Source: Escherichia coli (GTDB lineage Bacteria; Pseudomonadota; Gammaproteobacteria; Enterobacterales; Enterobacteriaceae). Taken from it: a stretch of DNA of 64,000 nt. The translations under genes and the position numbers were made by a program. Of the stretch, positions 51,919 to 52,061 are shown piece after piece; within the stretch, counting starts at the first letter, position 1, and each line of letters starts with the position of its first letter. A model generated the notes under the pieces. It was not told where the DNA came from. It saw nothing but the letters and a program-made list of their open reading frames with translations, and did no database searches. Location: assembly GCF_003790525.1 (NCBI RefSeq), contig NZ_CP033635.1; one strand, written 5' to 3'.

Positions 51919-51951
51919 TACCTCTCTGGCGGTAGATCCCTGCCGCCAAAA

Positions 51952-51996
51952 TTGCGCTAAATCAATCTCCCCTAAAGTTGCATTAAAAATCTCTTT
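51952..51996 (+). promoter_or_regulatory. candidate FNR-like and NsrR-like operator sequences upstream of hcp
   Basis: TTGCGCTAAATCAA (51952-51965) resembles the FNR box TTGAT-N4-ATCAA; AAAGTTGCATTAAAAAT (51974-51990) resembles an NsrR half-site; about 65-110 nt upstream of the hcp start. Confidence 0.35.
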
Positions 51997-52061
51997 TATC
52001 CCCGCGTTAAGCGTCTTAACCTTAAACATGTATATTAAATATAACTTTAAAAGGTGTGATC

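Follow-up and report, generated by a model that had tools for sequence, protein, structure and literature searches.

Which sequences in the intergenic region between lysO and hcp of E. coli (51919-52061) carry FNR and NsrR control of the hcp-hcr operon, and is the motif just downstream of the FNR box, which an initial annotation of this DNA had read as an NsrR half-site, the principal operator for NsrR? The region is part of a 64,000-nucleotide (64-kb) stretch that we analysed as a whole and refer to as the window. lysO ends at 51918 and hcp starts at ATG 52062 (MFCVQCEQ...), preceded at a distance of 5 nt by a conserved Shine-Dalgarno-like AAGGTG (52051-52056, plus strand) that we read from the sequence. 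A segment of 601 bp around the site is 100% identical to the annotated lysO-hcp region of strains IAI39, SMS-3-5 and CE10; of the 5426 complete genomes of E. coli, 5424 contain this segment. The hcp open reading frame (hybrid cluster protein, 52062-53714, plus strand) is likewise 100% identical to RefSeq hcp of these three strains and is followed by that of hcr (NADH oxidoreductase, 53726-54694, plus strand), with coordinates carried over from the IAI39 annotation. This annotation was applied to the lysO-hcp-hcr part only, because upstream of lysO the identity to IAI39 is just 93-97% and the IAI39 prophage is absent. The open reading frames and the identical RefSeq-annotated regions thus bear out the gene pair that had been named, and both of the strings that had been singled out are located in the promoter interval, TTGCGCTAAATCAA at 51952-51965 and AAAGTTGCATTAAAAAT at 51974-51990.

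The interval is the known promoter of the hcp-hcr operon, which is among the best-studied FNR/NsrR targets, and we consider it highly probable that what is seen here is this promoter with FNR at -72.5, NsrR on a palindrome at the start site and a second, weaker NsrR-like sequence upstream; we met no real evidence against this reading. Positions, matrix ranks, conservation and spacing come from the present analysis; for the start site, for occupancy by FNR and NsrR and for the expression responses we rely on the literature. All distances refer to the published transcription start site, the T in AAACATG-T-ATATT at 52031 (plus strand), which is marked as experimentally mapped in Fig. S1 of Rodionov 2005 (PMC1274295), a supplementary figure that we use together with a secondary citation. 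The start site and the assignments at -104.5 and -72.5 are, accordingly, secondary citations combined with our own arithmetic.

The FNR box TTGCGCTAAATCAA (51952-51965) is centred at 51958.5, which by our arithmetic places it at -72.5 relative to the literature start site, a class I position with which the start at 52031 is consistent. Scored with a matrix built from the 62 ChIP-seq-bound sites in Table S6 of Myers 2013, hcp excluded, the box is recovered at 13.3 bits, ranking fourth in the 64 kb where ∼1.65 equally good matches are expected per window. It belongs to the lower quartile of real sites, which range from 10.5 to 21.0 bits and 50 of which (out of 62) score higher, and as TTGCG-CTAA-ATCAA it agrees with 8 of the 10 specified bases of TTGAT-N4-ATCAA. 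Counting matches to the consensus TTGATNNNNATCAA with up to 2 mismatches gave 45 occurrences in the 64-kb window against 35.9 ± 5.7 expected, which is at chance level, and such counting was dropped as uninformative in favor of matrix scoring and conservation. Over 79 Enterobacteriaceae species the mean identity of the box is 0.99, compared with 0.40 in the neighboring spacer; even its non-consensus TTGCG half is near-invariant, the sole variant being a TTGAG that occurs in two of the sequences, and in 76 of the 79 species the main NsrR site described below follows the box at the same offset of 73 bp. Myers 2013 (PMC3688515) reports an FNR ChIP-seq peak at the same 14-mer and lists hcp-hcr as FNR-activated (Table S6), Table 1 of that paper gives the hcp FNR site at -72.5, citing Filenko 2005, and the same site had been predicted earlier by Rodionov 2005 (PMC1274295). 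The FNR reading of TTGCGCTAAATCAA is therefore correct and already published.

Three matches to the FNR matrix outscore the hcp box: TTGATTATCATCAA at 9472-9485 within yehB, TTGATTTAAAACAA at 11041-11054 near yehD and TTGAGCATTATCAA at 27891-27904 within yehM. The yehB, yehD and yehM sequences appear in Myers 2013 as predicted FNR sequences without a ChIP-seq peak. Because these three higher scorers were unbound in that study, the motif score does not by itself identify functional sites, and it is the distance of -72.5 from the start site, the reported binding and activation and the near-invariance in 79 species that identify the box at hcp.

Downstream of the box the core promoter is less conspicuous. 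The candidate -10 hexamer is TAACCT (52017-52022, plus strand), and the mean identity over 52017-52024 is 0.94. A consensus scan of 51800-52150 returned no sigma-70-like promoter, so that our -10 and -35 assignments are putative; the lack of a consensus match is expected, since the hcp promoter is activator-dependent. Myers 2013 (PMC3688515) remarks that hcp is without a sigma-70 ChIP peak and cites a dependence on sigma-E.

For NsrR, matrices of 23 bp and 11 bp were derived from 25 of the 11-1-11 sites in Table 4 of Mehta 2015, with hcp left out and the duplicate c0118/c0233 counted once. The top match to the 23-bp matrix in the 64 kb is the palindrome AACATGTATATTAAATATAACTT at 52025-52047, an 11-1-11 operator AACATGTATAT-T-AAATATAACTT that scores 25.7 bits (P ∼7e-10), that agrees with the inverted repeat AAGATGCATTT-N-AAATGCATCTT and that is exceeded by just one of the 25 known sites in a leave-one-out comparison. 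It spans positions -6 to +17 and hence overlaps the transcription start, and across the 79 species its scores range from 22 to 28.5 bits, with a mean identity of 0.96. Rodionov 2005 (PMC1274295) predicted an NsrR site at this downstream palindrome by comparative genomics, and in the genome list of Mehta 2015 for strain CFT073 the main hcp site is the second-ranked 11-1-11 site, just below ytfE. The NsrR ChIP-seq summit that Mehta 2015 reports for CFT073, 22 nt upstream of the start codon, maps to 52034-52040, inside 52025-52047. The principal NsrR operator of hcp is thus this palindrome and not the flagged motif; the initial annotation was right in that AAAGTTGCATTAAAAAT holds a good half-site match, but it left the operator itself, 50 bp downstream, unflagged though within its interval, and the mapped binding lies elsewhere in the promoter than the motif it had proposed.

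Two observations attach to this site. The mechanically produced list of open reading frames starts hcp at GTG 52056 (552 aa) rather than at the RefSeq ATG 52062 (550 aa), and the start-codon distances of Mehta 2015 are ambiguous by 6 nt if its CFT073 annotation begins at the GTG; the ChIP-seq summit is inside the main site under either start. In E. coli TUM18530, at the position equivalent to 52027, AAGATGTAT replaces AACATGTAT in the main NsrR site, a variant found also in some other E. coli strains and in several Citrobacter and Buttiauxella species that represents a shift towards the AAGATG consensus.

What, then, is the flagged motif? AAAGTTGCATTAAAAAT (51974-51990) follows the FNR box after a gap of 8 bp, and the 11-mer in NsrR register within it, AAGTTGCATTA at 51975-51985, scores 13.1 bits, third among 128,000 11-mer positions where ∼1.3 are expected. 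The matrix scan that the initial annotation had called for does find its motif as the third-best 11-mer, yet the best 23-mer is the one at 52025-52047. AAGTTGCATTA makes up the left half of another NsrR-like 23-mer, AAGTTGCATTA-A-AAATCTCTTTT (51975-51997, positions -56 to -34), that at 19.7 bits ranks second in the window (iid P ∼1e-7) and stands above the median of known NsrR sites, 8 of 25 scoring higher in the leave-one-out comparison. When the upstream 106 bp were shuffled 20,000 times, a score of about 19.7 bits was attained only twice. The two halves are unequal, with 13.1 bits on the left and a weak 6.5 bits on the right (reverse complement AAAAGAGATTT). Of all registers in the DNA that separates the FNR box from the main site, 51975-51997 clearly stands out, with an NsrR-consensus frequency of 0.57 compared with at most 0.42 elsewhere. 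As a predicted NsrR half-site the motif is already in the literature, AAGTTGCATTA being listed in Table 2 of Mehta 2015 as the third predicted motif under the hcp peak with a PatSer score of 8.92. The ChIP-seq peak covers both hcp sites with its summit on the main one, at a resolution that cannot split sites 50 bp apart. From its sequence, the flagged motif would be at most a weaker second NsrR-like site, a candidate secondary operator.

The block is moderately conserved, its mean identity to the window in 79 species (0.74) falling between that of the spacer (0.40) and those of the FNR box (0.99) and the main NsrR site (0.96). The 23-mer reaches at least 15 bits in 28 of the 79 species and 21-26 bits in Yersinia, Pectobacterium, Trabulsiella, Entomohabitans, Kluyvera and Buttiauxella, where the adjacent spacer is scrambled; the top scores are 26.0 in Trabulsiella, 25.0 in Entomohabitans and 22.2 in both Yersinia and Pectobacterium, compared with 17.9-19.7 in E. 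coli. It is ∼0 or below in Salmonella, Enterobacter, Lelliottia and Leclercia, the upstream motif in Salmonella scoring -0.1 to 4 next to an unchanged downstream NsrR site. Variation is found within E. coli as well. The promoters of the window and of K-12 differ by three substitutions (window/K-12), 51972 C/T, 51984 T/G and 51992 T/C, all of them in or beside the block, and the K-12 half-site AAGTTGCATGA scores 9.7 bits versus 13.1 for AAGTTGCATTA. An exact copy of the K-12 allele is present in 3854 of 5426 E. coli genomes; the window-type allele is the minority form, exact in 79 and window-like in ∼1199 of the same genomes.

Judged from these sequence comparisons, the upstream block would most likely be an auxiliary, lower-affinity NsrR target that is ancestral, better kept in the window allele than in K-12 and dispensable where it has been lost. 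The auxiliary-operator reading is held tentatively, with roughly a third of our confidence; an incidental resemblance to NsrR sites has about the same probability, and a decaying ancestral site a somewhat lower one.

The possibility of an incidental resemblance is a serious contender. It holds that 51975-51997 is promoter architecture, a docking place for the alpha C-terminal domain of RNA polymerase together with the -35 region, and that the NsrR likeness is accidental in A/T-rich DNA. Only the skeleton AA.TTG....A.AAA...CTTTT is conserved family-wide, and it persists in Enterobacter-type sequences that score ∼0 for NsrR. Column conservation in the block is uncorrelated with the information in the NsrR matrix (rho -0.02 and 0.22), a result that lends no support to NsrR-shaped selection and that counts against a second site. 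CRP/FNR class I geometry requires polymerase contacts downstream of the activator site, and the block at -56 to -34 is just where activation from -72.5 would need them, and CTTTTA precedes the candidate -10 hexamer by ∼17 bp. On the other side, the likeness to an UP element is weak: the consensus AAAWWTWTTTTNNNAAA at -57 to -41 is matched at 9/14 positions in register, a level that 1629 window positions equal or better, and the species median is 7/14. The match is indistinguishable from background, and the UP-element reading of the block was rejected. The NsrR match is far more specific, as the P value and the shuffles given above indicate, and the core TTGCAT, which contains G and C, has been kept from E. 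coli to Yersinia; recognition of an A/T tract would not require this. A sigma-54 promoter, a second FNR half-site and an alternative -35 at TTGCAT were also considered for the block and rejected by eye, their partner elements being absent or unconserved.

That the block is a vestige, now decaying, of a second NsrR operator of ancestral origin, no longer usefully bound by NsrR in E. coli, appears rather unlikely. The distribution of scores would suit such a history, being highest in scattered distant lineages, intermediate in E. coli and absent elsewhere, as would the placement of all three window/K-12 differences in or beside the block, which makes it more polymorphic within E. coli than any other part of the promoter. 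Its identity of 0.74 is, however, well above that of the neutral-looking spacer, and the score of the window allele exceeds the median for accepted NsrR sites. Finally, it is very improbable that AAAGTTGCATTAAAAAT as flagged is the NsrR operator behind nitric oxide control of hcp: while AAGTTGCATTA is a good half-site match and NsrR reportedly needs no more than a single 11-bp motif to bind (Partridge 2009, cited through PMC5320621), a far stronger and near-invariant full palindrome lies under the ChIP-seq summit at 52025-52047, Salmonella is without the upstream motif and retains the downstream site intact, and the literature (Rodionov 2005, PMC1274295; Mehta 2015) places the NsrR site at the downstream palindrome.

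Comparison with known systems sharpens the distinction between the two NsrR sequences. The closest one is the hcp-hcr promoter of K-12 itself (Filenko 2005 and 2007; Chismon 2010; site prediction by Rodionov 2005). It is the same locus: the NarL/NarP-type 7-2-7 pair discussed below, the main NsrR palindrome, the FNR box, the -10 region and the start site are all identical, as is every spacing. It differs in the three middle-block substitutions that give the window allele the better NsrR half-site. Like canonical NsrR 11-1-11 operators such as AAGATGCATTTAAAATGCATCTT of ytfE (Partridge 2009; Mehta 2015 Table 4), the main hcp site is an inverted repeat of 23 bp. The upstream 23-mer agrees with such operators at the outer AA..TG and the inner AAA positions, but its right half, AAATCTCTTTT, is without the TGCAT core, so that it resembles the class of single-half-site targets. 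With class I FNR/CRP promoters whose activator is bound near -72.5, hcp has in common a 14-bp box of the TTGAT-N4-ATCAA type whose distance from the start site is strictly conserved; for ackA-pta an FNR site at -74.5 is given in Table 1 of Myers 2013 (PMC3688515). Compared with the usual class I position of -61.5 the hcp box lies a helical turn further upstream, and it differs in its non-consensus, near-invariant TTGCG half, and the class I geometry that we assign to it is putative. The upstream candidate site has a possible counterpart at another promoter. At nrfA, NsrR reportedly acts from upstream of the -35 element to reduce the expression from a promoter that depends on FNR; at hcp, in contrast, the candidate upstream site would add to an operator at the start site.

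A mechanism consistent with these features can be put together as follows. Under anoxia FNR binds the imperfect box at 51952-51965 (-72.5) and activates transcription from 52031, presumably in a class I arrangement with a contact to the alpha C-terminal domain of RNA polymerase in the -56 to -40 region, and a NarL/NarP 7-2-7 site at -104.5 would add nitrate and nitrite input. NsrR on 52025-52047 (-6 to +17) keeps the promoter repressed as long as nitric oxide has not inactivated it; [4Fe-4S]-NsrR would block initiation, and damage to the NsrR cluster by nitric oxide would relieve the repression. NsrR bound at 51975-51997 would compete for the surface used by the alpha C-terminal domain and for the -35 region. 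It is possible, and we suggest it with due reserve, that repression by NsrR is exerted at two points, by occlusion of the start site and from an upstream operator at -56 to -34, between FNR and -35, whose strength is polymorphic. As part of this two-point arrangement the upstream operator might be stronger in the B2/F-type allele (T at 51984), weaker in the K-12-type allele and lost in Salmonella and Enterobacter, a proposal that we regard as equally speculative.

NarL/NarP heptamers follow the consensus TACYYMT. At the upstream end of the intergenic region TACCTCT-ct-GGCGGTA (51919-51934) forms a candidate 7-2-7 inverted heptamer pair of this type that is conserved in 79 species and whose centre, 51926.5, corresponds to -104.5, a position that has reportedly been assigned to NarL/NarP at hcp. 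Against the consensus, TACCTCT matches at 7/7 positions and GGCGGTA (reverse complement TACCGCC) at 5/7. The same DNA encodes a conserved hairpin, TGGCGGTAG-atcc-CTGCCGCCA (51927-51948, plus strand), that starts 9 nt after the lysO stop codon and that is predicted by RNA folding at -16.5 kcal/mol (z -3.75). A perfect stem of 8-10 bp with a variable loop is formed in 72 of the 79 species, a further sequence with an unrelated 6-bp stem not being counted, and compensatory changes (TAG/CTA, TTG/CGA, TAC/GTG, TAAT/ATTA) are evident. The hairpin at 51927-51948 is without a U-tract, a scan of 51800-52150 gave no terminator call and an Rfam scan of 50600-52300 matched no family. Its left arm is the right heptamer of the 7-2-7 pair, and the hairpin by itself could explain why that heptamer is conserved.

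The accepted picture of FNR and NsrR control at hcp is unchanged by this analysis; the promoter in the window is an ordinary and already known one that may, in addition, carry an auxiliary operator. The details are of some consequence nonetheless. Hcp is a main anaerobic nitric oxide defence enzyme in enterobacteria and the hcp promoter is in wide use for reporting cytoplasmic nitric oxide, for example on plasmid pNF383, and because the promoter serves both defence and reporting the bases of the NsrR operator matter. The operator to mutate or to model is the one at 52025-52047 rather than the motif that had been flagged. A more modest lead is that the second NsrR-like site varies among E. coli lineages and is weaker in K-12, where the promoter was dissected. 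Were the second site functional, the nitric oxide threshold or the tightness of hcp repression would differ between lineages, and the site could tighten repression in strains like that of the window.

A third-best NsrR 23-mer in the window, ACATTTCCTTTTAATTGCAACTT at 50925-50947, scores 15.7 bits (P ∼2e-6; ∼0.2 expected). It is located 72 nt upstream of the lysO ATG (51019), is identical in K-12 and may be due to chance. Homology to the K-12 region upstream of lysO begins near 50.76 kb, and an open reading frame for an IS110-family transposase (49654-50679, minus strand) is found at the junction (49654-50765) that joins the yeh/yoh region to lysO-hcp. In K-12 the yeh/yoh region is far from lysO; IAI39 has the same adjacency as the window. 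Over 18648-49912 the upstream 30 kb of the window is 93-97% identical to IAI39 and is without the prophage and group II intron insertions of that strain. As the hcp promoter is 100% identical to that of IAI39 but the upstream DNA is only 93-97% so, the window derives from a different, mosaic or more divergent strain.
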